This document shows positions 13,512-39,000 of a stretch of DNA of 64,000 nucleotides, in pieces. This DNA comes from Sphyrna mokarran (taxonomy: Eukaryota). Below the pieces are notes generated by a model. That model was not told where the DNA came from and made no database searches. It saw only the letters and a program-made list of their open reading frames with translations. How positions within the stretch are numbered: the first letter of the stretch is position 1; each line of letters begins with the position of its first letter. Position numbers and translations under genes: made by a program. Location of the stretch: contig JAGIQG010000004.1 of NCBI GenBank assembly GCA_024679065.1, forward strand, positions 54,994,001 to 55,058,000, written 5' to 3'.

Positions 13512-13566
13512 ATGTCGCTGAGACCTGCAGTTCAGAGTATGGTTCTTCTGTGGATGGTCTGGACAG
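13512..13566 (+). CDS. Gene 1 exon 1, signal peptide (MSLRPAVQSMVLLWMVWT-G)
   Basis: ATG at 13512, hydrophobic 18 codons, donor G|GTAC in phase 1. Same length (55 nt) and donor as the paralog exon 36031-36085. Confidence 0.85.
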
Positions 13567-16500
13567 GTACTGTTGCTTGTTATATGTTGCCTTTCAGAAT
13601 ACCTTAATTTCTATTTTAGAATATTCGCAAAGTTTCGCCGTGACAAATTAGATGCGTTACAGCTCCAATTCGATCGTTGGTGCTTCTTAACTGTTCTTGT
13701 ATTTTACTTACTTTTTGTTTTCTTTGACGCATGTAGCTTATCGCCGTTCTTTTTTATAGGTGCGAAAATAACATGGAGCAAAGTAGATCAATTCCCTAAA
13801 TATTTGACGGTTGCCAGGGGTGAAAATGTTTCCATGTTCTGCACATTTCCCATGCTTGAGAGCGATCCTGAAGTTTCTTGGTGGAAACGGGGCGAGGAAT
13901 CTATTCTGGAATCAGACAACAGAAAGAAAATTTATCTAAAGAAAGGCAGTAGTTCATTTCAAGTTCTGAATGCGAGTGTTGCAGACTCCGGAATGTATCA
14001 CTGTTCAGTAAAACATCAACATAACAAGATTGGGGATGGAAGTGGTTCCCAGCTCACTGTGTATGGTAAGTATCATTGTACCGGAGAAAGGTCGCTTTTC
14101 AGCTGTATGCGTGATTTATGTAAGTTGAACTTCTATCATTGGATGAAAATCTGGATTCGTTTTTCGTTGCTGGAATCTTTTTTCTATTGACCTCCAGGTT
14201 CGATTGCCTGTCTCCTGATTCGCACCACTGTCCAAGATAAATTTCACCTACTCCCTGACTATCCTCGTGACATTCCAAAGTGTTTTTCATCCAATCAGTT
14301 CTGTTGGTTCACTTGTAATTGTTACTGTCGTGGTTCCCCAGGACGACAATATACTTTTAGCTTATTAAATGAGAGTCTGAGTCTTGGTTTTCCAGGTAGT
14401 AAGACTTTATTCTCCAGCACACAAGAACAAAGCCGGGATGTCCGGAACACTCCAGTGAAATGCTCACTTACAGCTTGTCTTATACAATTTGCAGATACAT
14501 GCCTTGAGATTCTTATCTCATTCTCAAAGTTAGCTTATCTTTAACCCCCATTAGTGCTGGTTCTGCTAATAATTTATCTTGTCGTGGATTGGTCACTAAT
14601 CGATGCATTTACGACTCTGTAAAACCAGTTTGTTTATACAAGAGTTCTGACCGTTGCCCTCACCCCATTAATGTTGTTTATACACAATGGTGGCTTAGCT
14701 AGACTTTAAACTAAGTGACAAAGAGAATATATGTACCCCATCCCTGTTTTCTAGGCCACAGTGTGACCATTGTTTCTCAAGGTTTAACTGCCTACAGCTG
14801 CTTACACTCAATGTTTAATAAATGCTTACCATCCTGATTCTATCACACTAGCCACCATACATTCAATTACATTAAATAACATACTGGGCTCATTATATTT
14901 CAACATCTTGCCCATCGCATGTTGGTGAGACTATATTTCGCATTCTACTGCTACTACTACAAATATTCTCTTACATTCATGATACTGTTGCTACTACAAA
15001 TATTCTCTTACATTACTGAAAATGATACTGAAATAAAAAGATCGCATCAACTCTGAGATTGAGATTAATCAATTCGATGAGTTGTTCGATTTTCTTGTCC
15101 GAAATATTAGTACCTAAGTGAAAAAATGGAACAATTTTAACACGGCCCATGTCAAATCTTTTGTAAACTATTAATTCATGTCATAGGTCCCACAATTTAC
15201 CTCTGTTAAAAGCTCAACAATTTTAATACCTTCTCATTGCTTTCAAGATTTCATGCACCAGCTAACTTCTGAACTCACTGCTTTATATTGCTTTATAATT
15301 TATTATTTCTAAAATGAATACAAACGCGATGTTTAAGAAATCACAGAGCGAATAATTATTTCCACTGTAAGAATGTAACATAATTGATGCGGCATACAAA
15401 TGCCAATGTGTTCCTTTACATTAAAAATTACCTTTTATTTCCTTGTTAAAGTTCCCCCAACCCCCTTGAAGCTCTTTCAGGTTGAACGGATTTCAGCGAC
15501 CTCTCTGAGGTTCGAGTGTAAAACGGCTGCCTTTTACCCAGAGGATTTAAAAATCTCCTGGCGCAGAGATGGTGTGGAAATTCTCGCCGGAATAGAAACT
15601 GTGAGAAACAAGACAGTGGATGGTCTTTTTGAGGTCACCAGTTCTTTGGAAGAAGCACAACCTGTCCCGAGCCGAATAGTTTATACATGTCTGGCATCTC
15701 ATATCTCCCTTAAGGTGCCCGCCAGTGTCAACTATATCGCCATTCAAGGTAAGATTGGGCACTTGCAGCAGCGAGCGAGGCTTCCGAACTATAGTCATTT
15801 ATTAAACATTTAGCAGGGCAGCTGTTCAAACACAAAGTTTCAGAGTGAGTGTGGACATTCTTTAACCTCAATGCCACATCATTGGAAATGAATTAAAATA
15901 TCTAAGGTGGTTTGTAACTGCAGGAGAGGGAATATTTCCCTGAAAACATCTGAAACGGGAGGGCGATATGCGAACTGCTCAAAACTGAATGCTCTTTTGT
16001 TATCAAATTCTTGCCAAATGAAATGAACCTACACATGAAATGATCAGTTTTAGCAGTATTACTTTAACTGGACATTTCCTGTGTGGAACTTTAGCCAACG
16101 ATATCGTTCAAGGATATTCCCTCCATTACCCAGAAGCTCTTGATCATTATAAAAGTATTTCTCCTTGATCCAAACACTAAACTTCGCCAGGTGGGGGGGG
16201 GGAGGGGGTGTTCCGCCTTGATTTACATCATACATTGAATTCCTCTTTTCCTTATTTTTTCTCTCAAAATGCGAAGGCATAAAAAATGCTTCCAAAACTC
16301 CTCTGGTTGCAACTTCCCTTTACTCCAATAAACAATACTCTATGACAGTTATTAGCACTGTGGGTGTAAACTGTAAAAATGAGGAAACTACAATGCACCT
16401 ACAGAGCGTTTGGCGCTTGATCCGTGTTCTGGTGAGAGTGCATCTGCCATGAGGGAAACGAGCCGAGCTACCAAACTGAATATCAGAATCCGAAAGCATA

Positions 16501-17157
16501 ACTTGCGTCCTGGTGAAGTTAGCCGTGCGGGAAGATCATAACCTGATATTCAGCGAGTTAAATTTTGATCGCTGAGGGCGGTGTTGTGTGAGTGAGTTGT
16601 ATTGTCCCACGTTATTAGTATAGGGTCCAGAGGAACATTTCTGTTTTTTCCTACAGAGCCAAAAATATTTTTAAGCCTTTTGATTGGGATTTCTTTACTT
16701 GCTTTGTCGATACATCTAGTAGAAAGAACAAGCACACATATTATATCCTAAAATGGACATCAGTGTCCTATTTGAAAAGATGCCAATTGCCGGCAAAATG
16801 GCGCCGGCATCAAGCAACAGGCTGTCTTGGAAGATGGAGTGCATTATGTTAAAATGTTCACGTGGCGTTCAATATGCGGAGCGTCTTTTGAGGGTATTTT
16901 CTGTTCGGTTGACTTTGGAAATTTAATATCGGTCACAAAGTTTAGAGTAGCAATTGTATGGATCTCTTTCATGTCTAGAAGCCAGTACTATTTGGTTTCA
17001 TTCAATAATTCATATGTACGGAAAATTTATGTGTATATTTTAATCCTGCACTGTAGATAGTTTCTGGAACGTGATGATTTCACGGCTTGTTCTGAGTTTT
17101 TTGATAATTCTTGGATTGCTCGGTATAATTGTGGACCATGGGGCATATTTCAATTGA
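13512..17157 (+). CDS. Receptor gene 1: non-rearranging VJ-C1-TM immunoglobulin superfamily receptor, 252 aa; join(13512..13566,13760..14065,15452..15748,17057..17157)
   Basis: Four exons with GT/AG boundaries and all phase-1 junctions splice to an uninterrupted 759-nt ORF (leader, V, C1, TM). Every boundary is mirrored in the paralog at 36031-41203. Confidence 0.9.
13760..14065 (+). CDS. Gene 1 exon 2, Ig V-type domain with germline-joined J-like segment
   Basis: Acceptor TTTTTATAG|, donor G|GTAAGT. Protein KVDQFP...MFCTFP...VSWWKR...ADSGMYHC...GSGSQLTVY has the B-strand Cys, C-strand Trp, DxGxYxC and a GxG G-strand. Confidence 0.93.
15452..15748 (+). CDS. Gene 1 exon 3, Ig C1-set domain
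   Basis: Acceptor TTGTTAAAG|, donor G|GTAAGA. Motifs FECKTAAFYPEDLKISW, DGLFEVTSSL and YTCLASHISL are C1-set signatures (C-x4-FYP-x5-W, YxCxxxHxSL). Confidence 0.93.
17057..17157 (+). CDS. Gene 1 exon 4, transmembrane segment and short tail (DSFWNVMISRLVLSFLIILGLLGIIVDHGAYFN*)
   Basis: Acceptor CACTGTAG|, in frame with C1, hydrophobic stretch preceded by Arg, TGA at 17155-17157 followed by AG|GTAAG. Same arrangement in the paralog. Confidence 0.88.
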
Positions 17158-18273
17158 AGGTAAGGGGACACCGTTTTAATTCAGCAAACTACGTTCAAGG
17201 TGTATATACATAGTTAACACTGGTGGGCTGGAAATGAGAGATGTTCTTTTGCTCATCGTTTCTCCGGTAATTTAAGACTCACGGGCAGTGATATTAAATT
17301 CTCCTATTAAGTAACTCATAAGATAGAAGGCCATCACTTTTACCATGACAATGCTCATATTTAGTGCTATTAAAAAGTCAGAGATGAAATGTTAAATCAG
17401 TTTCCCTTCCAAGCCGAGCTGCCTGATCTGCCGAGTTTTTGCCACGTTTTCTGCTTTTATTTAATGTTATATTAGTTTTCCCATTAAATTCAGTTTCGCG
17501 CATGATATGCCAAGTGATAAACACTGAACATCAGTTTTGAGCGTTAGTTTAGTTTTTTCTCCTTTCGTGAAAAAAATTTTGATTTCAACTTCTCACTTGG
17601 GATACTTGAACACAAACATCCAGCTAGCATTGCAGCGCAGGACTGCTGGAGGTTTGGTCTTTTTTCAACGTCTAAAAACGAGCCCGTCTGCTCTTTATTG
17701 TGACCGTAAAAGCCTAATTGGTCATTTCGTAACTGAGCACCGTGGAGTTCGCTTGTGATCTGATCAGAAATTCGTTTTCAATCTACTTCGCTAAAATCGA
17801 TTCATTTTTCATTTATTTCAAAAATCTATGTGATTAAAAACGTCCCTTGTTTTTTTAAGTGCACGTTGCATATCTCGCTGCTGTGAAAGACTGCATATCA
17901 ATATTGATCCGTTCTTCTGTTTTGCAAGATTTTTATGTATGTTTAGAAAAATCATCATGCAAACGACACTTTCTAGGCACTGTTTCCCATTTTGCGTTAA
18001 ACTCTGCTAGAATTATGAGGTTAGGAATCTGGCAGAAGTACTCAATTTCGGAAATATGCTTCTCATGATGAAATTTTCAATACGTTTACATGTATCCTTT
18101 TATCTATTTTGCTTCCCTTCTCAAGGCGCTATGTCTAGTTGCCATGCCCACAATCTTCTCCCGCCACCAGTTCGTTTGGTATTACTGTTAAGGCGTGAGC
18201 ATCACGTTGTTGAACTCAGAGTCGTCATTTTTAGATTAGCAGTTTAAATCGTGGCCCTGGGATAAGTATCTGG

Positions 18274-18515
18274 TAAGAAGTCTCACAACACCAAGCTAAA
18301 GAACAATGGGTTTATTTGGTAGAAAACGCCACTAGCTTTTGGGGTGCTGCTCCGTCGTCAGGTGACTCACCTACTCACTCATCCACTCACCTGAGAAAGG
18401 CGCAGGGCTCCAAAAGCTAGTGGCGTTTCCTACCAAATAAATCTTAGGATTTTAACCTGGTGTTGTGAGACTTCTTACTATGTTTACCCGACCCCAAATC
18501 CGGCATCTCCACATC
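18274..18515. mobile_element. Penelope-derived inverted-repeat element with 12-bp target-site duplication
   Basis: Arms about 18274-18365 and 18385-18478 are reverse complements; ATAAGTATCTGG at 18262-18273 and 18516-18527; decayed CTGANGA...GAAA hammerhead cores in both arms. Confidence 0.75.
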
Positions 18516-18974
18516 ATAAGTATCTGGAGCAGAGTGTAATGCTAATTTTCCCTAGCTATCCCTGAATACACAAACAGCTTCATCTTTTCAACTGTTGCAG
18601 AACTGTGCATATTGTACACGACATAGGGGAAATCTAACCTACCATCTTCTGATGAGTATGTTTGGCTGCGTATTCATTCAGTGCTAAATGGAATTTTTTT
18701 TAACATGTGCAAGAAATCACGGGATACCAAGAGACTGCTTGAAATTTTCGATCCAAATATGTAACAAGAGCTTTTTGTTTTCAATTTGAATGTCGTTCTA
18801 AATTGAATGAGTGGAAATCCGTCAATTCCGGATAGATAATGATGAGTTAACGTTTGCCTTTTATATAAAAAGAATGTAATATATGATTACTCACACGTAC
18901 AATAATCAAAGTTTTTACCAAATGAAACTGAAAACGTGAATAAAACTTTAGCAAGCTGATATTTTGTAATCCCA

Positions 18975-20570
18975 TTTTTCAGCTTTTAGTCCATAGATAT
19001 GTATGTTGTAGCATTTCAAATGATTGTCTAAATGATGTTTAAATGTCGTTCAGACAGTGAATTCCAGATGCCCATTATCCTCTGGGTGAAATTACTTCCT
19101 CTCACATCTCCTGTAAACCTCCCTCCTACCTCTTAACTTCAGTCTGTGTCCTCTCATTATTGACCCCACTCCTAAGAAGAAATGTTCCTTCCGAGCCACC
19201 ATACTTAAGCCCCTCATAATTTAATTCATCTCAATCAGGTCCCCCACCCCCATCGTCTTCGGTGATCCACGGAAACCAAACCCAGCCTATTCAGTTTCTC
19301 TTGTTAGCTGAAATGCACCAGCCCCAGCTGAATCTTATCTGCACTTTCATGATTGCAAGCAATTCTTCTCGATCGTGTAGCGACCAAAATTGCATACACT
19401 ATTCCAGCTCTTGCCTAACTAGCGTTCATACAGCTCCATCATAAATAGCCTGCTCTAATATTAAATGCCTCAGCTGATAAAGACAAATATCCCATATGTT
19501 TTCTTAAGGCTTATCTACCTCTCCTGCTGTTATCAGAGATCTATGAAGCTGTGCACCTGATCAATGGTTGTAAATTCCTTTGCATTTTAGTATTTCAAGA
19601 CATATTACCTCACACTTTTTGAGGTTGAATTTCATTTGCCACTGTTCCGCCCATCGAACCAAACCAATATCGTCCTGTTCTGAGGATTTGCTTCTCACAG
19701 TTTACCACACCACCAATTTTTGTGTCCTCTGTGAACCTACTTATCATACCACCTATATCCACGTCCAGAATATTATTGTATACTACGAACAAAAAAAAAG
19801 GCCCAGTATCAATCCTGTGGAAGGCGACTAGACATCCGCTTCCTGTCGCAAAAACAATGTAGGAACATCATGCTCTTCCTTCTGACGTTAAACCAATTTA
19901 GCATCCAGTTAAATTGTCCTGGATCCCATGGCAATCCCATCTTTATCGGCGTCCCATATGGGACCTTGTCAAAAGCTTTATTGACGTCTATGTAGAATAC
20001 ATCAACTGCACTCCCCTCACCGACACACTGAATCACCTCTTCGAAGAAGTCGGTAACATTTGTAAGGAATGATTTCTCTTTGACAACAATGTGCTGATTA
20101 TCCTTGATTAATTCTTGTGTCCCCAAGTGCAGATTAATTACGTCCAACAGAACGTTTTCCGATTATTTCCTATCACAAATGTTACTCTCATTGCCTTGTA
20201 ATTTCCTGTTTTTTCCCTACTTTCCTTTTTGAATAACGGTATCACATCAGCTATCATCCAATCCTCAGCTATTGGACTTTAACCTGGTGTTGTGAGATTT
20301 CTTAGCGTGCTTACGCCAGTCCAACGCCGTCATCTCCATATCATGGCTCTGCTATGGCCGGAGAAGATTTGAAAATTATCGTCAGAACTGCTGCAATCTA
20401 TCCCCTTTCCTACCACAGCAGCGCATCTCATCTGGGCCTTGTCATTTATCAACGTAAGGCCCGTTGAAACGTCCTCTTTTTTAATGTTTGTCAACATAAG
20501 GCCCCTTAAAACCTTCTGGCTCTTAACGTTTATTAACGTAAGGCCCGTTAAAAGCTCTTCTCTCTTAATG
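18975..20570 (-). mobile_element. Degraded CR1 LINE in the last intron of gene 1
   Basis: ORFs 19610..19792 and 19809..20147 (AVDVFYIDVNKAFDKVP); absent at the paralogous site at about 42245. Confidence 0.8.
20445..20570. repeat. 3 x 42-bp tandem repeat
   Basis: Units TTT(A/G)T(C/T)AAC(G/A)TAAGGCCC..TT.AAA...TTAA(T/C)G at 20445, 20487 and 20529. Confidence 0.8.
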
Positions 20571-20903
20571 CTATGTTCTAACATTGAAAATGGTGGCATA
20601 TTTATTTAAATTAAATTTGCCTAAGTCTCGGTCGTGTTTATTGTAAGGATATTTTAATAATTACAGCCGAATAGCATTGAAGGGATGTAATTGGAGACAG
20701 TTTCACTAAGTTAGTAATAGTTTGATGTGATACAGATGAGCGTGCTTCAATGAGTCTAGAAATATAGATGCAGTGCTGAATTTACTTGCGGATTTGGAAA
20801 ATCAATGCAATTAAGTGGGAACTGTTTGTGAATATAAAATTGAAACTATAATTAAAAGACAGTGCATCGTTTAGAAAACAAATTTCAATTTCCTTTTTGA
20901 TAG

Positions 20904-21300
20904 GTTAAGATGGATTGACAATCTCCGCCTCTGTTTATATCTGCACCTTAGACATTGTTAAAGAACAGATAAAGGCGGAAGAAGAAACACTCGAAGCAAG
21001 GAATAAGGCAAAGAAGCCACAATCGAGACGGACCAGCGACACATCCAGCATTCGCTCACAGCCATTTTCAGTTGTATTTAGATACATTTTTTTCCTATAG
21101 CATTAGAATATAAAAATATAGTTGTTAGTTGACGCCCGTGCATAAAATGAGTTGCTGCATTCCTTGTAAGCGCAGTAACATAAATGGACAGTTGGCCGTG
21201 GGATTAATCCTCATGTTGAAATTTTAGGAGAGCTGGCACGTATCTTGATGTATGAGTCTCGTCAATTGAAAGTATTTTAAAATTAAATATAACTCTTGAT
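20904..21300 (+). other. Gene 1 probable untranslated terminal (3' UTR) exon
   Basis: Pyrimidine tract TTTCCTTTTTGATAG| at 20903, homology to 42572-43030, ATTAAA at 21282-21287 aligned with AATAAA in the paralog. An unused donor follows the stop codon. Confidence 0.6.
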
Positions 21301-21319
21301 TTTATAAGTATCTGGTCAG

Positions 21320-22980
21320 TAATTTCTCATTTTCTGTCTGTTTCCCTTTTAAGTAATGGAGTTACATTTGCTACCTTTAAATCTAATGCGACCTTTCCCA
21401 AAATTAGAGAGATTTGGAAAATTAAATCTAATGCATCAAGTTTCTTGTGACATTAAACACCAGAATGAACTCCATTAGGGTCTCTACTCATGTCAACCCG
21501 CAGCTCCAACGTGTTTGCACGGTATGAATTATCTGGTGGCTGTAAATATTTTCAATCCCTCCCTTTCTTCCATTTCCTAATTTAAAACTGATGCTGGTAT
21601 GTTACTTCCATTCTCCATCATGAGGATTATTCAATTCATCTTCCATCTATTTATTTCCATTATCAATTCCAGAGCTCACTTTCTATGATAACACTTCACT
21701 TTATTAACACTTCACTTTTTTCAATATTTACTAAAGCTCATTCTATTTGTGTGTATGTATTGGCTAATTTGCGTGAGGTTCCCGCTTCTTAATTTTTTAG
21801 TCATCCCTTACTGTTTCTGATGTTTCTACGAATTTTCTAATCTGCCACCTGTCTTTGCACAATTATATGCTTTCACTTAAGGTTTGACACTATCTTCAAA
21901 CTTTCTACTTAATCATGGATGATGTCCCTTGGATTTTTCACACTCATGGAAATATACCTGTTCTGTGTATTCTGAAATATTCCTAAAACAATTGCCACTG
22001 CATCTCTGATGACCTATTATTTGACCTATTTTGCCAATGTGTTTTAGCCAACTCAGCTCCCATGCCCTCACAGCTATCCTTAGGTTAAAACATTCTTTTT
22101 CCTTCAAATTGAATGCAAAGTTCGCTCATTGAATCCATGCAGTGCAGAAGGAGGCCATTCTTCCCACTAATTCTGCACTGACATTCTGACAGGGTACCTT
22201 GGCCAGGCCCTCACCCCGCCCTGTCCCCATAATGGCACATGATTTACCATGGCTAATCCATCGAACCTACATATCTTGGGACGCTCAGAGGCAATTTAGC
22301 ATGGCCAATGCACCTAAGCTGCAAAACTTTGGACTATGCGATGAAACCAGAATACTCTCAGGAAATCCCACTGACACAAAGAGAATGTGCAAACGTCACA
22401 CAGGCAGTCACGCAAGACCGGTATTGAATCCGGATCCTTGACGCTGTGAAGCAGCAGTGCTAACCACTGGGCCACCATGCTGCTCATATCATATCTTTGT
22501 TGCTGCTACATCAGGGTGTCTTCACAATGAGAACATCAATTGCTCCAATCTCGTTGCACAATACCAGGCCTAGCATAGCCTTGTCTCTGGTTGGCTGCAG
22601 AACATATTATTCTATGCAACATTCCAAAAGTCATTCAACGAACAGCTCAACCAGGCTACTTTTGTCCTTCTGACTTTTCTCATCCAAATGTAAACTAAAA
22701 TCTTGCACGATTACTATTGTACTTCTATGAGGAGCTCCAATTATTTTTCCCTTCATGCTCCACCCTATTATGTGATTACTGTTCGAGGGCCTGTACACAA
22801 CTCCCACAAGTGACTTCTCACATTTACTATTTTTCAACGCTACCCAAATCGTTTCAACGTCCCGGTTTTCTGAATTTAGGTCATCCGTTCTATTGTGTTC
22901 ATACAATCTTTAACTAATAGAACCACTCCTTTACATTTTCCAGGCTTCCTATCGTCTCTAAATATCTTTTGCCTTTCATT
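21320..22980 (-). mobile_element. Degraded CR1 LINE (endonuclease and linker) interrupted by a SINE
   Basis: ORF 22631..22906 ETIWVALKNSK..SLVGVVYRP. Confidence 0.7.
22130..22485 (-). mobile_element. tRNA-derived V-SINE/HE1-like SINE
   Basis: Minus strand GCATGGTGGCCCAGTGGTTAGCACTGCTGCTTCACAGC (A box), GGATTCAATACC (B box), TTTGCACATTCTC core and CR1-type tail. Confidence 0.8.
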
Positions 22981-22999
22981 AGTAAGTTCTCAAAACATG

Positions 23000-23330
23000 T
23001 CCCGCTGTGGTCATGCCCCTGTAGATTCTCCAAATTCGATGGCAAGAATGGTAATCCAACAACAGCATCATCTCCCAATCTGCGTGTTGAACATCGAGGC
23101 ATTAATCACTCCAAACCCGTACCGCCCGACTGGACATAACCGTTCTTCTGGGAAATCTATCTCTGCAAGAATCTCCCAAGATAGACTCCCAGGAGGAGAG
23201 CAGACGTATTTTTGGATGCTCCGAAAGATTCGCAGATTAGTCAAATGTGCCGACTGACTCATGCGTGAAACAGGCTTAAGAGTAACGTTAAATAAGAAGA
23301 CTCTTTGGGAATGAACCAAGAATATCGGGC
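23000..23330 (+). mobile_element. Highly degraded RTE-type LINE 3' fragment
   Basis: Residual peptide NIEALIT...GH...PGGEQ resembles RTE ORF termini; weak match. Confidence 0.4.
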
Positions 23331-24116
23331 GCTTTCATCGCTATGTGCACAGCTACATTTGAGGCTGCGCAGAAAGCGCAGTAACCTTCAGGCAAATTAT
23401 CTAATCAATCCCTCAGGATCACTCTCTTCACATGTGTCAGAATGTGCAGATCACACATTGGTCCCTATATGGGAATCTTCAACAATAGGCATAGCCTAAA
23501 GTCAAGGATATGTCATTAAGACGTTAGGACGGCGGCGTGAGCTCGTTGGGCCGAAGGGCCTGTTTCCCGTGCTGTGTTGCTCTTTGTTCTTGTTCTTTGG
23601 GCTTATCAACCATCTCGGAACCTATCGACCTGCAGTAGGAACAAGTCACCCTTGATCCCCAAGGACTATCGAACGGAAATAGAAAAAGAATTTTGCGGGA
23701 GCAGCTGACCTTCAATGTGACCTGCATTTCCGTCATTCGCCGGAACCGGACCAAGCCTCCAGGTGTTGTACATGATATCTATGTGTAGAATCTCTACTTT
23801 GCAAAAGGAGGTTGTTCGGCCCACTGAGTCTGCACCGTCTCTCAGAAACAACATCATACTCAGGCCTCCCCGCTGCCTATCCCCGTAAATTCAGCGAATC
23901 TGATCTTGGATACGAAGAGCAAAATCATTTTAACCACTTTGAATTTCGGTAATCTAATTTAAATCTGCCACATTGTAACTGCGTGTCAATAAACAATTCA
24001 TTCAGACATGATTTTTGAAGCATGTGTGTGTCGTCTGGATTGAAAATAACTGGTCTGATTGCCTCGTATTCTCTTTCGTACAGTTTGAATGTGTAGTTGT
24101 TTTTAAGAACCAAACC

Positions 24117-24251
24117 ATAATAGAACATAGAACATAGAACACTACAGCACAGAACAGGCCCTTCGGCCTTCGATGTTGTGCCGACCAATATAAAAAGCAA
24201 TGCCCCTCCAAACTAAACCATTCCCTTCTCTTCCATATACTTATCAACTAA
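24117..24251 (-). mobile_element. Extremely truncated CR1 3' end (same subfamily as 24458-25912)
   Basis: (ATAGAAC)n tail plus about 110 bp nearly identical to 24460-24582. Confidence 0.85.
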
Positions 24252-24457
24252 AAATAAATATCATAATAAACCTGAAGGAACAACTTTTCTGTCGGTGTTT
24301 ACAGATAATAAGGTTTTCCAACAAAGATCAAATTTGCAACACTAATTGTTCTGCCGTGGCACCGTTTTTAAAAAGTGAACGAGTTGTTCAGTGATTACTT
24401 GCATTTAATTATGTTTTATATTAGATTTACTATTCTAATAACAGGCAGAATAATGTT

Positions 24458-25912
24458 ATAGAACATAGAACAATACAGCACAGAACAGGCCCTTCGGCCT
24501 TCGATGTTGTGCCGACCAAAATAAAAAGCAATGCCCCTCCTAACTAAACCATTCCCTTCTCATCCATATACTTATCAACTAACCTCTTAAACGCCACCAA
24601 ACTTGGCGCATCTACAACAGCTGCCGGCAGGGCATTCCACTCCCTAATCACTCTTTGAGTAAAGAACCTACCTCTGATATCCGTCCTATAACTCATACCC
24701 CGTAATTTAAAGCTGTGTCCCCTCGTGCTAGCTTTCTCCATCCTAGGAAAAAGGCTATCACTGTCCACGCTATCTAAACCTCTAATCATCTTATATGTTT
24801 CGATTAGGTCCCCTCTTAGCCGCCTCCTTTCTAACTAAAACAACCTCAAATCCCTCAGCCTCTCTTCATAAGACCTACCCTCCATACCAGGCAACATCCT
24901 GGTAAACTTCCTCTGTACCCTCTCCAATGCCTCCACATCTTTCTTATAATGTGGGGACCAGAACTGCACACAATACTCCAAGTGCGGCCGCACTAGAGTT
25001 TTGTACAGTTGCAACATGATGCGGCGGCTCCTAAATTCAATCCCCCTACCAATAAAAGCTAAGACTCCATAAGCCTTCTTAACAACTTTATCCACTTGAC
25101 TGCCTACTTTCAGGGATCTATTGACACATACACCAAGATCCTTCTGTTCCTCAACACTATTAAGAGCCCTACCATTAGCCCTATACTCTACACATTTATT
25201 GTTCCTGCCAAAGTGCATTACCTCACACTTTTCCACATTAAACTCCATTTGCCACCTCTCGTCCCAGCTCTGCAACTTGTCCAAGTCACTCTGTAAACTA
25301 AAACACCCCTCTTCACTATCTACCACACCACCAACTTTAGTATCATCTGCAAATTTACTGATCCATCCCTCAATACCCTCATCCAGATCATTTATAAAAA
25401 TTACAAACAGCAGGGGCCCCAAAACAGACCCATGAGGCACACCACTCGTCACCGAACTCCACGATGAATATCTCCCATCAACCACCACCCTCTGTCTTCT
25501 ATCTGCCAGCCAATTTCTAATCCAATTAGCTAAATCACCCTCTATTCCACACATCTGCATTTTCTGTAGAAGTCTTCCATGGGCCACCTGATCAAAAGCC
25601 TTACTAAAGTCCATATATACTACATCAACCGCCTTACCCCCATCCACCTCTCTGGTCACTTTCTCAAAAAACTCACTGAGGTTAGTAAGGCATGACCTAC
25701 CCTTCACGAAACCATGCTGACTATCCCCAATCAATTCATTTCTCTCTAAATAACTATAAATCCTATCCCTGATAATTCTCTCCAATACCTTGCCCACCAC
25801 AGAAGTAAGACTCACTGGCCTATAATTCCCAGGAAGGTCTCTCTTCCCCTTCTTAAACAATGGGACCACATTCGCCATCCTCCAGTCCTCCGGAACCACA
25901 CCCGTAACCAAC
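24458..25912 (-). mobile_element. Young 5'-truncated CR1 LINE, RT domain almost intact
   Basis: 358-aa ORF with NYRPVSLTS, QHGF, DFSKAFD, GSVLGP and FADD; a single TAG at 24835-24837, after which the frame continues to 24544; (ATAGAAC)n tail. Confidence 0.95.
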
Positions 25913-26062
25913 GGGTTATTCCGCCTGAAGTGCCTATGCGTGTTTAATCGATTTTCAATTTTATTTCAATAACCCGTCAAGTTAGTTGTCCTCAGATGCA
26001 TGTCCCACTGCCTTTAGAAATTCTCTCTGAAATCTAATTCCAATACGCTTTCAGGTAACGCA

Positions 26063-26120
26063 TTCCAAAACTCCTCTTAATTCCAAAACTCCTCTTAATT
26101 TCAAAACTCCTCTTAATTTC
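26063..26120. repeat. 3 x 18-bp tandem repeat
   Basis: TT(C/T)CAAAACTCCTCTTAA repeated three times. Confidence 0.85.
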
Positions 26121-27999: not shown

Positions 28000-28900
28000 A
28001 AACTGGAGATCGTGGCATGGTCATTTTATGGAAGTATCGCTTTAAGATTTATCAGTGGACAGTAAAATAAAGATGTTATGTATATATTGGTTACTTTGGG
28101 TTGGTAAGCTCTAAGGAACACTGCACAGCAAGGACCAGCACACGATCTGAACCATTTATAAAGCATGTTAGCGACACATAGGATGGGACTGAATGCAAAA
28201 GATCCAAGTTTACAAGTGACCGAGTTACATGACAAAGCAGATTGTGAAGAGGATGCTAAAGTGCTGTAAAGGAATATAAACTGAAATGCGGGGTAAATAA
28301 GAATGGCAAATGGAATATAAGATGAGGGAAAGCAAAGTTATCCACTTTGGAATTAAAAATATGAAAAGCAGAAAATGTTATTAACAGCGAGACAATGATA
28401 AATATATATATTCAAAGAGACTTGGGTATCCTTCAACATGAATCACAGGAAGTTAAGATACAAGTCCATAATTATAGGAAACAATGCTAGCCCTTTTGGA
28501 AATGGACTGAAGAACAACAATAACAGGCTTCCTACTATTATAAGTGCCAATTTGACACAAAACTGCCATCCCTGAAGGACTGTGTGCAATTTTGGTCTTC
28601 CCATCGACGCTTAGCTTAGATGGGCTGGAATCGAGTTCATGAACTGTGATAAGGGTGTTGTTCTATGAGAAACAAAATAATAGACTAGGTCTACATTTTA
28701 CCTAAATGAGAAGAGTAACTGGCTTGCGTATTGAAATTTATTATTAAGGAGATGCACAGGATGGACAAATTTCGAACTGCTTGAAAGATGTTTCCCGTTG
28801 CTGCAGAAGACAAATCTAAGAGTTACAGACTCAGGATAAGCGGCCAGCCATTTGGGAATAAGTAGACAAGAAGTGTCGTTGCTCGAAGGTTCATTTGTGC
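28000..28900 (+). mobile_element. Old degraded CR1 RT/3' fragment
   Basis: GAATGGCAAATGGAATATAA and GGACTGTGTGCAATTTTGGTC; paralog of 3900-4660. Confidence 0.6.
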
Positions 28901-30179
28901 CTCAAGAATAGGGAATCATTTCCTGTACAAGCGCAGTATTAGTCTAAATGTGTGTTGTTATGCTAAATGAACAAGTTTGCTTGCCACAGGCTAAAGATAC
29001 CATGCAGCTCTTAAAAAGCAAGTTCTTGAATTCAATTTTATATATCAACTATTGACGTTGGGCAACACGCTTTTGGCGAGTCGGTGAATGATGAATGTTT
29101 AGAATCAGGCTATTTCAGTAAACGAATTTCCCAACTCCTTTGATCTCAGAAGCTGTGAATAATTGATTGTTTTTTTTTTGTTAAATACAAGAAATATTTT
29201 CTAAACAACGTACTTAAGAAGAAATCTCTTACCCAATCATCTGTCAGAATAATGTGCCTGGAATTAAGGGATTTTATTCTCTTAGGGCATTGCGAATCTT
29301 TGGAATATTCTACCCCCGAGAGCAGTGAAGGCTAATTCATTCAATTACTGAATTGGACAAATTTTGAACTATCGAGGATACAATGGTCGAGGAGCAATGT
29401 CAAGAAAGTGAAGTTGAGGTCAAAGTCCATAGTCTTATTGCATGAAGCAGCAACAGAATTGAACATATCTACAATGTAAAACCTGATGTATTGGTATGTT
29501 CCGTGCTCTAACAATGTGATCAAGCTGCAGAACAAACCCTGATTGTATGAAGAGTGAAATAAGGCATCCTTATTGGGATTAACTCAGTGGAACATTGCGC
29601 CGTACAATATTGGACTAAGGTGCCGGAAAAATCCATGCTGCTCTTCTAGCCTGCTCCACCATTCAATAAAATTAAACTGGTCTAGGGGGGGAGGGGGGGG
29701 GCACGTTGGTGGGAGGGGGGTCTCAACTGCACGTATCTATCCCAAATAAATCTTGACTTGGTCTTGAATAATTTCAGTAATACAGCCTCTATTACTCTTT
29801 GGAAAGACAATTCCACGAACTAATGCCACTCTAGCAGATTTTTTTTTAAAACCCTCATGCTCTTAAATTGAACACATTTCTCGTGTGCACCACCACTGAC
29901 AATAGCCTCTTGGTGTCTAACAAGTCAAACATCCCGAGGGTCTTATGAATTTCTATAAGGCAAGTTTTCTTCTTCTGATCGCCAATGGATATAAGCCGAA
30001 TTTGTTTAACCTATATTCATAGGATAAGGTCTTCATCACAGGAGTAAATCGAGTGAATGCTCCCGCTACTGCGCCTGAAGCAATTAAATAGGCTTTTTAA
30101 AACTAAGATCAAAACTATACTCCGTATTTCCGATGTGGTCTCACTAATGTTTCGGATGATGAATGGGTGCTCGTCAAAC

Positions 30180-31130
30180 TTACTAGTTTGATATGAATGA
30201 AGTTCTGATTTTTGAACGTGGTTACATCTGAAGTCATGCAGGAATATAGTGTCTGCTCCATTTCACATTTGGCATGTGCTTCTTAGATGGCAGACAGGCT
30301 ATCTTGCAGCCAGTTGTGAGAAACGCACCGCAGATTTCATAACTTCTGACTGTTTTTTTGAGTTTCAGCATTTATTTGGTTGTCGTTAGGTCTCAATGTT
30401 GAGCCCCACGATTTGAGATTCGGCGACGGTAATGCCACTAAGTGCCAAGAGTACATCGTTAAGCTGACTTTCGTTGGACTTGGTCCTTGCTTGACACTCT
30501 TGTGGTTCGATGTGACATATCACTCATCAGCCGAAGAATGTATGCTGTCAAGGTCATTTTGCAAATGGATACGGACTTCATTATTTGAGGAGATGTAAAT
30601 GGACGTAAATACTTTGCAATCATCAGCGAATATCCCATAGCTACAAATGGATACATCCACATTACATGCGCTGCAGAGGTTCAAGAAGACAGCTCACGCG
30701 CAGGCGCACTTAGGAGTTGTCACCAGACAGCGACGTCCACATCCCTTGAAAGAATGAAATAAATGACGAAAGCAGGAAAATTAACGGAGATAGTTTTGCC
30801 TTGAACTCTGCTCCGCGGAGCTCATGCAGCGAGGCTGGGCCTGATGATTGAGCAGCAACCATTCTCGTCTTTCTTCCATCCAGTTGTGACCGACTATTGG
30901 CTTCAATATTACCTTGATGTCACACTCGTCAAGTGCTGTCAAAAGTGCTGTCAAAGTCAGTAATTCTCAAGTCTCCTCTAGAATTTAGATTTTTAGTCCA
31001 AGTTTGGACAAAGACCGTAATGAGGGCTAGAGCCGAGTGTTCCTGACCCCAAACTGATCATCATTGAGCAGAGTATTGCTGAGTAACTGTGGCTTGATTG
31101 CACTGCCGATGACAGATTCCAATAAACTGT
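30180..31130 (-). mobile_element. Degraded CR1/L2-clade LINE (second family)
   Basis: Minus strand GGGATATTCGCTGATGATTGCA (FADD); same family as 56530-58390; remnant also at 5670-5900. Confidence 0.55.
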
Positions 31131-33044
31131 TATTTATTAATTATTACAATGATGTAGCGCAATTGACTGGATCGCAATGCACCTGCTGAATTCTTATCGG
31201 GAGAAGCCGACGGGAAATTCTGCTATGAATGCTTAACGATTCACAGCCCAATGTTGCACTTGACAATTTCAAGGCCCCTAGACGAGAGTCTGCAAATAAA
31301 TAATTGGTTTGTTCTAAGATAGCACCTTTGTAACTTGGAATGCCTTAATCCAAAATTCCTATCTTTCTTATTTTAGCACTTGCACGAAGCAATTCAAGCA
31401 GACAAACGCATCCGATTAAATAGGAAAGACGCACATTGCAGGCAATGCCAAAATTGTTCGCACAGTTATGAGTAGTGAGGATTTCCACGAAGCGTGATTA
31501 AGAATGGGGTTGATTAAACTGCCCTATTTCTAATACTTCTTACGTGGTGGTAATGAACTGAGCATCAAATAAGTTATAATTCTGGCCACATAGAAAGTGA
31601 GAGCTATGGTTGAACAACCATTTCAGAAACACTGAATAATTCCCTAGATGCTAATCAATGATCAGAGAAGACAATTGAAGTAACTCCTGTTATAAATCCC
31701 CGATTTTAATATTAAAACTTCATTGGTTCTTGCCTTAATTGCTGCATCACTGAACTCAGTTCAAACACAATTGAACAAAATGGGTAACACAGTAACAGCG
31801 AATTCTCAAATTTTCTGTGAGGCCAAACATGTCTCATTCACACCGCCGATATTACTTTTAATTTTGCTGCCATTTGTTGTCTGGAAAGATGATTAGGAGT
31901 TTTAAAAAATTCAACACATGATAGAAGCAAATTACGGAATTTACATTAATTTTATGATCCTTTAATAGGTAGTACACTTCAGTTACAGCCATGTTGACCC
32001 CCGCAGTCGAAAGCCTACCGTCACAAAATCAGCATTTTGAGCCGATAAACGCCCAAGACCAGATGTGCAGCTTTATGATAACCTTTGGAAAAGCAGGGTG
32101 AGCACAGAAAATGTCAATATCAGAATCAAATATTAGACAACGACAAGCAACACATTTAAATATGCTACTACCTTTGAAGGATTGAAATTATTTCGACATA
32201 AAACTTTACTGTCTGGCAGACCGTCATCAAGTACCTACAGGAAAATGTATTTTGCCAGCAACAATTATAATTGCAGTAAATGTTGCCATTCTGTAATCAT
32301 TTAATATGACACGACATCTGAATTAATTCCTTCTGGTCCGTAGGGACTTGGAAAGATAGGGATGTAGGAAATAGGAGCATGAATAAGCCAATGGTCCTTC
32401 AATGTTTCTCCTGCATACAATTACATCTTTGTTCATCGGCTACTTCAACGTCTTTTTCCAGCAATAACTCCACATTCCTAGATAGCTTTAACAATTTGAA
32501 ATCCATCGATGCCTGCTTTGAACATTCTCAATGACTGCACATCAATAGCTCTCTCGGCGAAAAAAATCTTAAGATATACAATCCTCTGCATGAAGAAATT
32601 TTTGCTCATCTCATTCTACAATTACTCCGTATTCTGAATCTGTTTTATTTTATTGTTAATATTGTTAGTGATAATGCTTAAATAAAAAAAATGTGCATTT
32701 GCGTGAAAGCCACGTTTTATTTCATAGTACATACAATATATTTGAGAATGACGGGAGCAGCCTGAGAATCTGGAGCAATTAAACAAATATTGTATGCACT
32801 TTATTATTGTCACCTTACATATTTGTTTCCATGCAATTTTATTCTTTCAGTTAAGCTTCATCCTCCCTCAAGTTGTTTAGGTACTACTTTGGTTAACCCG
32901 TTAAAATTTCTAATTATTGACGAAATCTGATGGATTGGTAAAGGGAAAGAATTGTACAGTTGATCTTTACTATTCTCTCTCATCACTCTTTACTCCATGG
33001 CTGAGCGTCCACGTTAAGCTCATTTCCACCTCATGGCAGTTCAT

Positions 33045-33612
33045 ATAGAGTACTGGTGAGGCCGTAGTTGGAGTACTGTGTGCAGTTTTGGTCGCCACAT
33101 TCGGGGAAGGATATATTGGCCTTGGAGGGGTGCAGAGAAGGTTCACTAGGCTGATACCGGAGATGAGGGCATTGGATTATGAGGAGAGACTAAATAGGCT
33201 ATGTTTGTACTCGGTGGAGTTTAGAAGGCTGAGAGGGGATCTTATAGAGACGTATAAGATAATGAAGGGAGTGGGATAGGGTAGAGGTTGAGAGACTCTT
33301 TCCGCTTAGCAAAGATAGCAGGACTAGAGGGCACACCCTCAAGATTAGGAGGGAGGGCGGTCCAGATCAGAGTTGAAGAGAAATTTCTTCACGCAAAGGA
33401 TGGTGAATCTTTGGAATTCTCTGCCTGATGAAATGGTGAACATATTTAAGTCAAGTGTGGGTAGGTTTTTGATTGAATTAAAGGTTACAGGGAGGAAGCA
33501 GGAAAAGTGGTACTGAACCACTGCAGATCAGCCATGATCTTATTGAATGGCGGGGCAGGCTCGAGGGGCTGGGTGGCCCACTTCTGCTCCTATTTCTTAT
33601 GTTCTTATGTTC
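33045..33612 (+). mobile_element. CR1 3' fragment specific to duplication unit 2
   Basis: ORF 33088..33279 VQRRFTRLIP; TTCTTATG tail; empty site at about 8314-8322 in unit 1. Confidence 0.85.
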
Positions 33613-34123
33613 TTGTATCACTTGCTTTGTGGCACCTCGATATCGGACCTTCATTCAGGTGCCTCAAACTATTTCATATCAAATTTGTGCAATCTTAAAA
33701 GGGAATAACTGTTGAAAAATGAAGGAAGAATTTTAATATTTAGCTCAACTTGTGGAAAACTGTACAAATTCTGACACAATCAACTAATTAAAATGCCATA
33801 TGCCACTTACATATTGAACTGGATTCAATGATGAGAAATATATCAGATCTTCACTGTATCTTTGGTGCAAGGGATGAATTCTAAATGGCTTTACAATTTG
33901 CAAGTACATCTGCAAAGTGAACAAAAACAACTGGACATTAGAAAATAAGCTCTTGGTAAAATTGCAAATTACAACGAAATGTTTCAACAATGCAACATTA
34001 TAGGCAATATGCGGGCTAGAAATTCATTACTGAAAACCAAATAACATAATATTTGACTGCTTTTGTTAGGGGGGGATTTCTGTTACTTTGATTTGAATGT
34101 AGCAATATCAGGAAGAGAACTTG

Positions 34124-34810
34124 ATTTTTGATCTGATTTGAATTATTATTGTCACGTGTATTACGTGACAATAATAACCTCCACTCTATCCCATACTTAA
34201 TAAGTATAAAGTATTACTACTTGCCGTTATATGGAGAAAACGTATCGTACATATCGATGGAAAGTGCAGAATGTAGTGTTGCAGTCAGAGGTAGGGTGTA
34301 AAGAAAGATCAACTCAGTGCGAGGCAAGTCCATTCAAAAGTCTGATGACAACAGGGAAGAAGCTGCTTTTAAAACGGTTGATACCCGATTTCAAACCTTT
34401 GTATCTGTTCCTTTTGGAAGATGGTGGAAGACAGTCTGTCCAGCGTGCGTGGGATCGGTGATTATGCAGGTTGTTTTTCCGAGGCAGCGGGAAACATTGA
34501 CAGAAGAAAGTCAAAGGACAAGAATCCTGTAGAGAGTAACTCGCCTATTGACAATCCAAAGAGTGCTTATCATCATAAGGTACAAGTCAGAAGTGTGATG
34601 CGATAATCACTATTTGCCTAATGCGTGCATCATGTCAATGGATAAGAAACTGATTTGAGTGATGGATCGGGCTTCGTTCACGATTCTTTGTAGTTTGTTG
34701 TAGTCTTGGACAGGGCAGGAACCATATTAAGCTTTGATACAACCGAAAAGAATGCTACCTATGGTGCATCTGTAGAAGTTGGTGAGAACTGTAGCGAATA
34801 TGCCAACTTG
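34124..34810 (-). mobile_element. Rex1/Babar-type LINE 3' fragment specific to unit 2
   Basis: ORF 34314..34514 INRFKSSFFPVVIRLLN; flanked by AACTTG on both sides; empty site at about 8845. Confidence 0.75.
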
Positions 34811-35902
34811 TACAATAAACCGTTACATTCATCTCATTGAGCTTGTTTCATTGATAGTGTAATGTTTTCCAGTGTGATTAATATGAATGCGCTGGGGAAA
34901 TTAAATATTAAATCATGTTTACGGTCCTTTCTGCTTAACTCTTGTCAGGAAGATTCGGCTGCTTTAAAACAAGTGTTAATATTAAGTAATTTGGTAACAT
35001 TCACTACCAAAATATGCCATGTACCATAAACCATGGCCTAGCCATGGATAAATGTGCCGAAAGTCAAGTGATACTAGTCACAAAAATAGTGACACCCTAC
35101 TTTGGTACGAGTTGGAAGCATTTTCGTAAGAGAAAACGTACTTATGGTCTCGCCTCTCCGATTGTGCAATAGATAAGGCGCAAACCTACTGTCTTCTGAA
35201 CAAAGAATAGCTCTAAATGTAGGTGGCTATCGTTTTTTACCGCCAGACTCACAGTAATTTCATTGCATTGTTAATATAAGCCCAGTTGTGAAGCAAATAA
35301 ATATTTTTAAAAACTCCATCCAACGTATGCTACACGGCATCGCAGGAGGTAAATCTAATAAACTGAAATCAATTTAAAACTTAAAACACCATTATCAAGA
35401 AACACCATTTACTAACAAATTATTTTGTGGATGTGATAAATGTGAAAACTGGTGTAAACCCATCTATAAAGCTTTGGCTTGCAGTAAAAATTCACTATTA
35501 TTGTCTTCGACGCACTGGAATGAGGAATGAGGAGATGATCAGGATTATTAATCAGAATAGTTATTCCAGCGATGTCTCAACACGTTGTTTGAAGTCTCGA
35601 TCATACCCGACCCTAAGTACTCAGGACTAAAAGTTTGCACATTTTGTGTTCCGGCAGAAAGTAGAATGTCTTTGATGAAGTGCTGCAGGACCGCTTGCGG
35701 CCTGCATCGTTATTTTCAGGATTGAATGAAGCGTCGATATACTTGACGATATACTTGATAATGAAAATTATTGTAACGAAGTTTCCAGAAAGTGGCTGAA
35801 AGACATTACTCCTCAAGACACATCTTTTCAGCTGGTATCAAGGTCAGCTTCTACTTCGCAGACAGACGCAGAGAAATGTAAACGCACCCGATACGCTGTT
35901 TT

Positions 35903-35936
35903 AGTCATGTGATCGCTCATGTCGTGGTCACGTGTT
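35903..35936 (+). promoter_or_regulatory. Candidate proximal promoter E-box module, gene 2
   Basis: GTCATGTGAT (M-box-like) 125 nt before the ATG, plus GGTCACGTG (E-box). Confidence 0.45.
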
Positions 35937-36030
35937 TCATATATTTAACCATAAAATCTATTTGTTACGCAAGCTAATGTGGCTATCTTTCTCATTGGCG
36001 CAAATAGACAAGTAACGAATTATTTGCAAC

Positions 36031-36085
36031 ATGTCGATACAAGTTACAGTTCACTACATGGCTCTTCTGGGCGTGTTTTGGCCAG
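36031..36085 (+). CDS. Gene 2 exon 1, signal peptide (MSIQVTVHYMALLGVFWP-A)
   Basis: ATG at 36031, donor G|GTAC, paralogous to 13512-13566. Confidence 0.85.
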
Positions 36086-39000
36086 GTACATTTAGTTATC
36101 AGATGTTGCCGGTTTCACAATAGCAAATCCTAATTTAAAAGATTCTAAATCTGTTACCCACTGTAAAGCTGGATACTGTGCTTCTCTAATTCGATTCCTT
36201 GTTTTCATAATTTACTTCTCTCGGTTATTTTTCTTTATCTGTTACATCACCGCCTTTGTTTCTTTCCCGACAGCCGCCGAAGTAACTTGGGCCAAAGTGG
36301 TTCAGATCCCCAAATACTTCAACGTGAGCAGAGGCGCGAACGCTTCCATACTCTGCACATTTCCCTTATTTCCAGATATGCCCGATGTTCGTTGGTGGAG
36401 ACGTGGAGAGCAATCCTTTCTCGAACCAGACAGCAGAAAGCGATTTGATGCGGACAAGGGAAGTAGTTCGCTTGAATTCCTGAATGTGACTTTTGCAGAT
36501 TCCGGAATTTATTATTGTAAAGTGGAGTATCTAGAAAAAGTTAATGAAACTGGAACTGGCACCCAGCTTACTGTATACGGTAGGTCTGATTGTCTCAGCG
36601 CCATATGTGCGATTTGATTCTTTTTATCACTAGAGGAAAAAGCGATTGCGAATTTCTTTTACAGAACACTGGATTGTTCTCCATTGACCTCGATGCACAG
36701 TGGATATATTAGTTCAAATAAAAGCAAATGATTGCGCAATCTGGAATCTGAAGCAAAAACAGAAAATGCTGGAGAATCTCAGCAGGTCTGTGTAGAGAAC
36801 AGAACTCAAGTTTTAAATCTGGATTTAAGTCATCAAGTCTGGAAACGTTAGCTCTGTTCTCTCTCTCCACAGATAAAGACAGAGCTGTTGAGATTTTCCA
36901 ATAACTTCTGTTTTCGTTATTGTAAATTCGAAAGTATGCAATGGAAAAATGCGAAATAAAAAGACACGTTTTGGAAAAGGTCAGCATGCCAAGGAGCCTA
37001 TGTGGGAAGTTAAAAACGCTTTCATTGTCGATTATGAAAATCGATCTGAAACGTTAACTCGGTTTCTCTACACGGATGTTCCCTCACCTGCAGAACATTC
37101 TCCTTATTTTCAATTTGTATTTGAGATTTCATGCCTGTGCTGTATTTTGTGTTGATAGTTGAATGGGATTTCAGTTTCCTTCATGTCACAGGGACATGGC
37201 CACAATTCAATAATTGAATCAACTTTAACACCTCACAGGTCAAACCTTTTTCAAATTTTGATTATCAGTTTATTAATCTGAACAAGGGAGGAATGTTCGC
37301 TGCGTGCTTAGTGACACCCACAATTGGAACTGCGAGGAGCAACAAATCAAAACGAACCCAAAATGGAAGTGATTGCAAAGAGAAAGAAGTTTTCGGTGAA
37401 AGTTAGTCCATTCAAGTACTCGTTCATTTTGTTGTAGATTGCCGTTTCCAAATCGTCTCTGTGCCGAGTTCGTTGAGCTAAATCAGGAGGCGAAAATCAA
37501 TTGGGATTCTTATTCCTCACTCCTCCCGCTTTAATTTGAACAATTTGGTAATATTTACAAGGGACTAGACTGTAGCTAAATTCACCCAAAGGTTAGAAGT
37601 GTTGTGTTATTTTGCCAGTCACCTTAAATCGGTCTTCTGGTTATCGACTCTTGTGTCACTGAGAACACTTTCACCTTATTGACTTTATGAAAACTGATCA
37701 GAACTTTCAAAGTTGCTATCCAGCCTCCTTTAAACATTATCACGTTTAAATAGAACAACCGTAACTTATTCAGTCTCTGCATATAATCCAAGTTCTTTCA
37801 CCCTGGTAAAGATCCAACATTCTCAGTGCCTTCATAATAAACTCGGGTGAAAACTCCCCAAACACAGCGACGAATTTTCCTCAAACCACACCTTTTTTTC
37901 TGCTAATTGCTCGAAATTGCCGATGTTACACTTTCCATGTGCCCGAAATTTGTGACGGATAGGGTTTTTGCTATGTTTCAGTGTCAACCGTATGTCCGCA
38001 GTTTATATTTGGTACATGGATCCATTTATATGTTTCACATTCCAAAGTTTTCAAAAACCAGATTCTACAACCCAGTAAAAGGAAGGATTTTGCCTTCAAT
38101 GCTGGATTCCACTCTGGATTCTAGACTGTGCAGGACAGTAAAGGTGCCCGGTGCTTTTGTTTGAACCTCTTGGGTACGCCACCTGAATTTCCGATGATAT
38201 TGCCATAACAGATAAAGCGGAGGCTGGGTATCACCGAACATTCATAAAACACCTGGCATCCTTTTCGCAATTCATGATTCCCATGTACACATCCCATGCC
38301 TAGACGAAAGTTGAGTAGGAGATCGAGAGAACACTGGCTTCTTTCTCCCAAGCAGGTTAAAACAAGGTCATGTGAAAAGAACTGAGGAATTATGAGTCTT
38401 TGTTGGAATAACAGCCAATGTAATATTTAATATGGCTGTAAATTATTAATTTTCTACTACTACAATGTCGCAAAAGTAGACTCATGAGTAAAATATATAA
38501 AATAGATTGATTATAATAAATAAATCTATGTAAACCTAACAAAAAACTTTACAAGGTGATTGTGGATAGAGTGGGCAGACTGATAGAGGGTTTCGCACCA
38601 GAAAATGATAAATTTGGACTGCTCGAAGGAAAATCTTCTCCAGACAAAATGCGTTCAGCTGGTCGAATGACACTACCATAAACGCCTGGAATTAACGGTT
38701 CAAAAAGCAAAATACTGCGGTTGCTGGAAATCTGAAATGAAAACTTAGTGTTTACTCAGCATTTTTTGTTTTCATCCCTGGAATTAACCCTTAGGTTATT
38801 TTCCCTATTAAGTTTCAGTCATCCGTATGGGTATGATGATCTGTATAGATATATATAAAATTCTCAAAATTACATCTTTCCTGTTTTACAAAATACTCTA
38901 ACCTTCATTCCTGCCTTGAGAATTATCCTTTACTGAATAATGCAAGATTTGAAACTTGCAGCATAGATAATGAAATGTTATATAATCAACAGTACCTTGT

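Follow-up and report, generated by a model that had tools for sequence, protein, structure and literature searches.

Two shark receptor genes of old V types are likely activating partners of inverted inhibitory genes, with exons probably reshuffled by gene conversion

The stretch analysed here (hereafter the window) comprises 64,000 nucleotides of the Sphyrna mokarran genome, positions 54,994,001 to 55,058,000 of contig JAGIQG010000004.1, and carries two intact plus-strand receptor genes, gene 1 and gene 2, composed of leader, variable (V), constant (C1) and transmembrane (TM) exons with phase-1 AG/GT borders (Table 1). We consider it probable that these are leader-VJ-C1-TM receptors whose V domains belong to two old types, A (gene 1) and B (gene 2). 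Each is likely the activating counterpart of a different set of inhibitory genes in inverted orientation, and their exons have likely been reshuffled by gene conversion acting at two levels. Judged from the sequences, exon-level conversion appears clear, and its mechanism is already known from the CEACAMs. The loop differences between gene 1 and gene 2 would reflect membership in two old receptor types, and diversifying selection of the antibody style left no sign in our tests. Mammalian and frog immune cells use paired receptors, in which on and off forms are matched by exon conversion in inverted clusters; the same logic likely operates in sharks, on genes that resemble antigen receptors without rearrangement.

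Signalling class cuts across V type

The genome holds 39 V exon matches, 38 of them on this contig, with main clusters at 54.19-55.03 and 62.4-63.3 Mb; named homologues are found in sharks, rays and chimaera, under automatic names such as SIRP-like, NCR3LG1-like and tapasin-related. Eleven genes form a close subfamily, in which four V domains are of type A (gene 1 included) and seven of type B (gene 2 included). Four of the eleven, namely A1 (gene 1), A3, B3 and B7 (gene 2), lie on the plus strand and carry a TM arginine followed by a stop right past the membrane. The other seven have a neutral TM segment and lie on the minus strand at 54.19-54.52 Mb, and a downstream exon of the immunoreceptor tyrosine-based inhibitory motif (ITIM) type, with two tyrosine motifs, was assigned to six of them by position only. 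Signalling class cuts across V type in this subfamily, and gene 1 and gene 2 are therefore not each other's natural comparison. Closely matching V domains are found in the neutral-TM partner genes, inverted and 0.5-0.85 Mb from the window genes: V identity reaches 96/101 for A1-A2, 96/101 for B3-B5, 90/101 for B7-B6 and 98/101 for a catshark pair.

Some members of the subfamily carry additional exon copies. The ITIM-type exon is present twice in B1, B4 and B5, the copies being separated by about 10-18 kb (L103-L105, L107-L109); in B4 and B5 the far copy has lost the first tyrosine. B5 (L066) also carries, about 390 bases upstream of its intact C1 exon, a short second copy of the beginning of that exon.

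Separate histories of the V and C1 exons

In the quartet formed by B7 and B3 (arginine) and B6 and B5 (neutral), the V exon has 17 informative sites, and every one of them unites B7 with B6 and B3 with B5. The introns of the same four genes behave differently: of 170 informative sites, 162 follow signalling class and 8 cross it (V versus intron, p 2e-18). When B1 replaces B6, 14 of 16 V sites pair arginine with neutral genes (p 9e-14). For type A, BLAST aligns gene 1 with A2 only over V (91%) and over C1 plus about 280 bases (82%), and with A3 along most of the gene; gene 1 and A2 differ at 4 of 39 four-fold sites in V, and their adjacent introns are 49-62% alike. The partners also agree in three V blocks, here called BC, D strand and FG, in which gene 1 and gene 2 share no residue at all (0/5, 0/5 and 0/9, total 0/19), as the first-pass annotation had noticed: all 19 block residues are identical in A1-A2, in B3-B5 and in the catshark pair P0001-P0183. 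These data suggest that V exons have been exchanged between activating- and inhibitory-type genes, with support from the B quartets and a weaker case for type A.

Several observations weigh against this reading. The quartet with B2 and B4 is weak (3 cross versus 4 class sites, p 0.013). In the A quartet, all six informative V sites group by signalling class and so give no sign of recent cross-class conversion; conversion in type A would be older or incomplete. Where intron identity is close to 50%, the alignment is in part forced. Gene 2 (B7) matches its nearest partner, B6, at 15 of the 19 block residues and differs at 4. As to the classes themselves, no ITIM-type exon was found for A4, and position is the sole link between the tail exons and their genes. 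Finally, catshark and horn shark are represented by predicted proteins rather than DNA, with only one B-type gene found in catshark.

Further look-alike pairs lie at 54.69-54.80 and 63.13-63.25 Mb of G000:C993 (L012/L013, L018/L020, L022/L023, and L027 with L024/L025). L012, which has an arginine near the TM start, and L013, which has a tyrosine-motif tail, share 284 of 288 V bases inside an 85% block; L020 and L018 share 274 of 282 V bases in an 87% block, and L022 and L023 share 286 of 288 in an 88% block.

The C1 exons have a different history. Over gap-free whole codons, gene 1 and gene 2 are identical at 52 of 101 positions in V and 77 of 98 in C1 (Fisher p 1e-4); the earlier counts of 52/102 and 78/99 are reproduced once the split codon is included. 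Silent sites follow the same contrast: four-fold sites differ at 17/27 in V and 10/39 in C1 (p 0.005), dS between the two genes is 0.83 in V versus 0.41 in C1, and dS on the stem separating A from B is 0.39 versus 0.17. Both V types are present in catshark, where P0001 (A) and P0161 (B) are identical at 51/101 positions in V and 89/97 in C1. Among 27 sequences, the B types of the two species come together in the V tree (support 100), and in the C1 tree catshark A groups with catshark B (99); the reciprocal V and C1 topologies are rejected by the approximately unbiased (AU) test (p 1e-4 and 0.035). For the 11 genes, too, the nucleotide trees of V and of C1 reject each other (AU p below 1e-4). 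Because V groups by type and C1 by species, types A and B must have separated before the divergence from catshark, with exchange of C1 within each species thereafter. The conserved look of C1 would thus come mainly from homogenisation within species. The first-pass annotation had allowed that gene conversion homogenising C1 could undo its inference of selection, and this is largely what we found: omega is equal in V and C1, dS is twofold higher in V, and C1 groups by species.

Taken together, two levels of conversion probably account for the data. Through the inverted arrangement, gene conversion would keep the V domain of an activating gene matched to the ligand face of its inhibitory partner, and conversion would also homogenise C1 across V types; V matched within type and C1 homogenised across types would yield the V-versus-C1 identity contrast. 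Such a contrast between paralogues is no proof of selection when exon histories differ. The two members of a partner pair are predicted to bind the same ligands, with types A and B likely differing in theirs, and the FG hairpin may be a type signature maintained by purifying selection. Through the TM arginine, the activating receptors would associate with an adaptor, FcR-gamma or CD3-zeta; such pairing is established for NKp30-type receptors, and the genome contains two adaptor TM exons (PF11628). By analogy with CEACAM1/CEACAM3, the system has likely been driven by a pathogen that takes advantage of the inhibitory receptor. Three partner pairs, A1-A2, B3-B5 and B7-B6, are defined reagents for seeking shark self ligands and pathogen mimics. 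On a wider scale, and tentatively, sharks might keep a large paired system of unrearranged VJ-C1 chains with VNAR-like V domains, in which every old V type, shared across species, specifies a single ligand by way of its FG hairpin, and conversion on two tiers has matched activating decoys to inhibitory receptors since early jawed vertebrates.

The divergent blocks and the predicted V fold

The interval singled out earlier, 13760..36579, runs exactly from the first base of the V exon of gene 1 to the last base of that of gene 2. Mismatches between the two V domains are only modestly clustered when compared with shuffled mismatches: the run of nine has P 0.052, the three longest runs jointly P 0.0066, and the number of runs P 0.63. 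The AlphaFold model of the gene 1 V domain (predicted local distance difference test score, 91.7) lacks a C'' strand. In it, KIYLK lies on beta strand D (55-60), and most of the FG block forms a beta hairpin whose turn is two residues long; of the three blocks that had been called CDR-equivalent, BC and FG are therefore comparable to complementarity-determining regions (CDRs), and the D-strand block is not. The C-to-D link that stands in for CDR2 is conserved between gene 1 and gene 2 (proportion of nonsynonymous differences, pN, 0.13). Among the 27 sequences, KIYLK is limited to type A of this genome, and 7 of 9 FG positions are type-diagnostic versus 20 of 92 elsewhere (p 0.001).

The charge reversal proposed earlier does not hold as a property of the types. 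The reversal is mostly private to gene 2: the summed charge of the three blocks is -4 in gene 2 only, the other six B-type genes having 0 or -1 and the four A-type genes +1 or +2; in the BC block, gene 1 is the more acidic (-2 versus -1). The sequon counts are as described before, two in the V domain of gene 1 and four in that of gene 2, including NET at residue 90. An FG sequon was ruled out as a mark of the type of gene 2, being present in 3 of 7 B genes, and a sequon occurs in the same FG hairpin in 20 of 24 more distant V exons.

Selection on the V exons

Codon models were run with our own GY94/F3x4 implementation, not PAML, with branch lengths free in the 11-gene site models and scaled in the 33-exon ones. 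The larger set retains 33 of 38 V exons, after exclusion of two with stops, one not recovered, one without the first cysteine and one protein-identical duplicate. Between gene 1 and gene 2, dN/dS is 0.41 in V, 0.27 in the V framework, 0.28 in C1 and about 1.2 over the 19 hand-picked block codons; one-ratio omega over the 11 genes is 0.48 for V and 0.47 for C1. Omega of the three blocks is 0.04 within type A (p 9e-5 against 1) and 0.66 within type B. The blocks are nearly frozen within type A, under strong purifying selection.

Selection may have acted for a time on the old branch that separates A from B, which would be compatible with paired conversion as an added step: a single ancient burst of positive selection would have established a new FG hairpin in the stem lineage of type B, with a change of ligand, followed by purifying selection. 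Consistent with this, stem omega is 2.39 on the 19 sites versus 0.49 in the framework, the branch-site model places omega 4.1 at 13% of sites with four of seven flagged sites in or adjoining FG, and FG is a type signature across species. Neither the stem test (p 0.41) nor the branch-site test (p 0.20, with power of only 2/12) is significant, however, and the 19 sites had been picked for differing. Moreover, only type A of this genome shows the D-strand change; the changes in the three blocks thus do not fall on a single branch. We regard such a burst as conceivable, though somewhat doubtful.

Plain birth-and-death duplication with relaxed constraint on the exposed loops, in which the likeness of partners stems from recent tail swaps instead of repeated conversion and has no adaptive meaning, would explain the pseudogene copies and the within-B omega of 0.6, alike in loops, framework and C1, and the 66-72% V-C1 intron shared by B-type arginine and neutral genes fits an old tail swap. 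One swap, however, cannot yield V exons that are 94% alike and flanked on both sides by class-grouping introns, nor a species-wise grouping of C1, and the purifying selection on the blocks within type A runs counter to relaxed constraint; we judge this explanation unlikely.

The first-pass annotation had proposed sustained diversifying selection on CDR-like loops, giving a germline receptor repertoire. Part of this stands: the genes belong to a multigene family (38 V matches on the contig), in which BC, D and FG are the most variable. Over 35 V exons, the entropy of BC, DE and FG is 2.32 bits versus 1.72 elsewhere in V (p 0.01), pN in the loops of the window pair is 0.64 versus a pS (the synonymous counterpart) of 0.61, and between species within a type the blocks evolve faster than the framework (8/19 versus 62/82). 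The selection itself did not emerge from the codon-level dN/dS check that had been suggested. No site class above 1 was found in 11 V exons (M1a/M2a p 1.0; M7/M8 p 0.90; M8a/M8 p 0.80) or in 33 (p 1.0, 0.76 and 0.92, respectively), nor did the same three models detect positive selection in C1 of the 11 genes; in simulations without recombination, 15 runs with omega 3 at 15% of sites gave 12 detections, and 15 runs with omega 2 at 19% gave 8. Together with the low block omega within types, and with a V no more variable than C1 across the family (1.84 versus 1.73 bits, p 0.31), these results make diversifying selection very improbable.

Comparison with known receptor systems

The closest parallel to paired conversion is found in the CEACAMs. 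As described in PMC5112662 and PMC2832619, paired CEACAMs (human CEACAM1/CEACAM3 and Xenopus ceacam301/303) are inhibitory and activating genes in opposite orientation, in which conversion is confined to the exon that binds ligand and the introns are dissimilar, and the shark classes resemble them in orientation, V-exon conversion and dissimilar introns. Positive selection, which has been reported for ceacam orthologues, was undetected among the shark paralogues. Other differences are the VJ plus C1 ectodomain, the predicted activation through a TM arginine instead of a cytoplasmic immunoreceptor tyrosine-based activation motif, and the homogenisation of C1 across V types. Three hallmarks of paired receptors are found in the shark genes: near-identical V ectodomains on activating- and inhibitory-type genes, a charged TM with a short tail versus a neutral TM with an ITIM-type exon, and cross-class conversion of the ligand-binding exon (in the B quartets, and more weakly for A).

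Like SIRP-alpha/beta, the shark genes have a V domain with a J-like end followed by C1, and inhibitory- as well as activating-type members, and many RefSeq names of the shark proteins are SIRP-based. SIRPs have a V-C1-C1 ectodomain and, in activating members, a TM lysine; the shark genes depart in both respects, with one C1 exon in 11 of 11 genes (the bamboo shark model P0164 has two) and a TM arginine. The match to SIRP-alpha is no better than to antibody light chains (phmmer E 2e-9 versus 3e-10). NKp30 (NCR3) is a single VJ domain without C1 and shares the TM arginine, whereas the shark genes have a C1 exon. The V plus C1 architecture of B7-H6 (NCR3LG1) fits, with E 9e-9, again no better than light chains.

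Both window genes have a single-exon VJ domain plus C1, and in this they agree with the VJ-C1 layout described for non-rearranging genes that resemble antigen receptors (PMC10751288 and PMC12227049). No exact nonamer was found near either V exon and the J-like end lies within that exon, so the genes do not have the split V/J arrangement with recombination signals. A single-exon VJ domain is also a feature of the non-rearranging antigen-receptor-like genes UrIg/UrIg2, NKp30 and PRARP, which the portions of PMC12227049 and PMC10751288 covered do not describe as a large paired family; those portions describe C-domain conversion for UrIg2, which, unlike the shark genes, has many C domains. UrIg2 is the best immune-receptor match among PDB sequences (E 3e-14). 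In structure, VNARs occupy Foldseek ranks 1-9 at 20-27% identity, and NCAM I-set domains tie with them on Z (15.2 versus 14.6). The covered portion of PMC9514858 describes VNAR as lacking CDR2 and two strands, as does the shark V model; unlike VNAR, the shark genes show that low identity, no rearrangement, and a hypervariable region 2-like link conserved between gene 1 and gene 2. A PDB profile search returned generic immunoglobulin matches only, and a profile search of representatives was dominated by titin-like proteins. The literature searched contains no prior description of the family; papers on PRARP and the 'primordial immune complex' lie outside it, and an earlier account is therefore possible.

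Gene structure and surrounding DNA

Table 1 Features of gene 1 and gene 2 in the window.
Feature	Position in window	Strand	Basis
Gene 1 (type A, arginine TM), leader exon	13512..13566	+	tblastn with shark homologues; phase-1 GT donor
Gene 1, V exon, which includes the J-like GxG end	13760..14065	+	Pfam V-set; AG/GT boundaries; AlphaFold model
Gene 1, V blocks	BC 13852-13866; D strand 13927-13941; FG 14011-14037	+	Motif positions
Gene 1, C1-set exon	15452..15748	+	Pfam C1-set; exon boundaries
Gene 1, C1-to-TM block	15441..17236	+	Continuous alignment to gene 2 39497-41280, 71%, 1856 columns (self-BLAST)
Gene 1, TM exon, arginine and stop few residues past the membrane segment	17057..17159	+	
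Gene 2 (type B, arginine TM), leader exon	36031..36085	+	tblastn with shark homologues; splice boundaries
Gene 2, V exon	36274..36579	+	Pfam V-set; motif positions; boundaries
Gene 2, V blocks	BC 36366-36380; D strand 36441-36455; FG 36525-36551	+	
Gene 2, C1-set exon	39509..39805	+	Pfam C1-set; boundaries
Gene 2, TM exon, arginine and early stop	41100..41205	+	

Self-BLAST also aligned the leader-V blocks of the two genes (66%), and gave no aligned block for their V-C1 introns. In all four arginine-type genes, the stop lies two bases ahead of the TM exon donor (17140-17159 and 41185-41205 in the window), and the end of this exon is apparently shifted by one base relative to catshark P0161 and P0001. 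Such a shift would leave the next exon untranslated (gene 2 match, 42568-42609), and points to a single origin of the activating 3' half. Between the C1 and TM exons of gene 1, at 16657-16750, the intron contains a second frame that is hydrophobic and preceded by an acceptor; no counterpart was seen in the paralogues as a TM candidate, and the frame is likely due to chance.

Much of the intergenic DNA of the window is taken up by degenerate long interspersed nuclear element copies, including reverse transcriptase fragments (PF00078) at 24838-25965 (minus strand) and 49906-50694 (plus strand). An integrase zinc-binding domain (PF17921) of a long terminal repeat retroelement lies at the window edge (63671-64000, minus strand), and a stretch of about 1 kb is duplicated at 1634-2633 and 4655-5655, the copies being 88% alike and 3 kb apart. 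Elsewhere, at 81.08-81.86 Mb of G000:C1548, about 25 near-identical tandem C1-like matches, weak to the C1 query, form another multicopy immunoglobulin-type locus.

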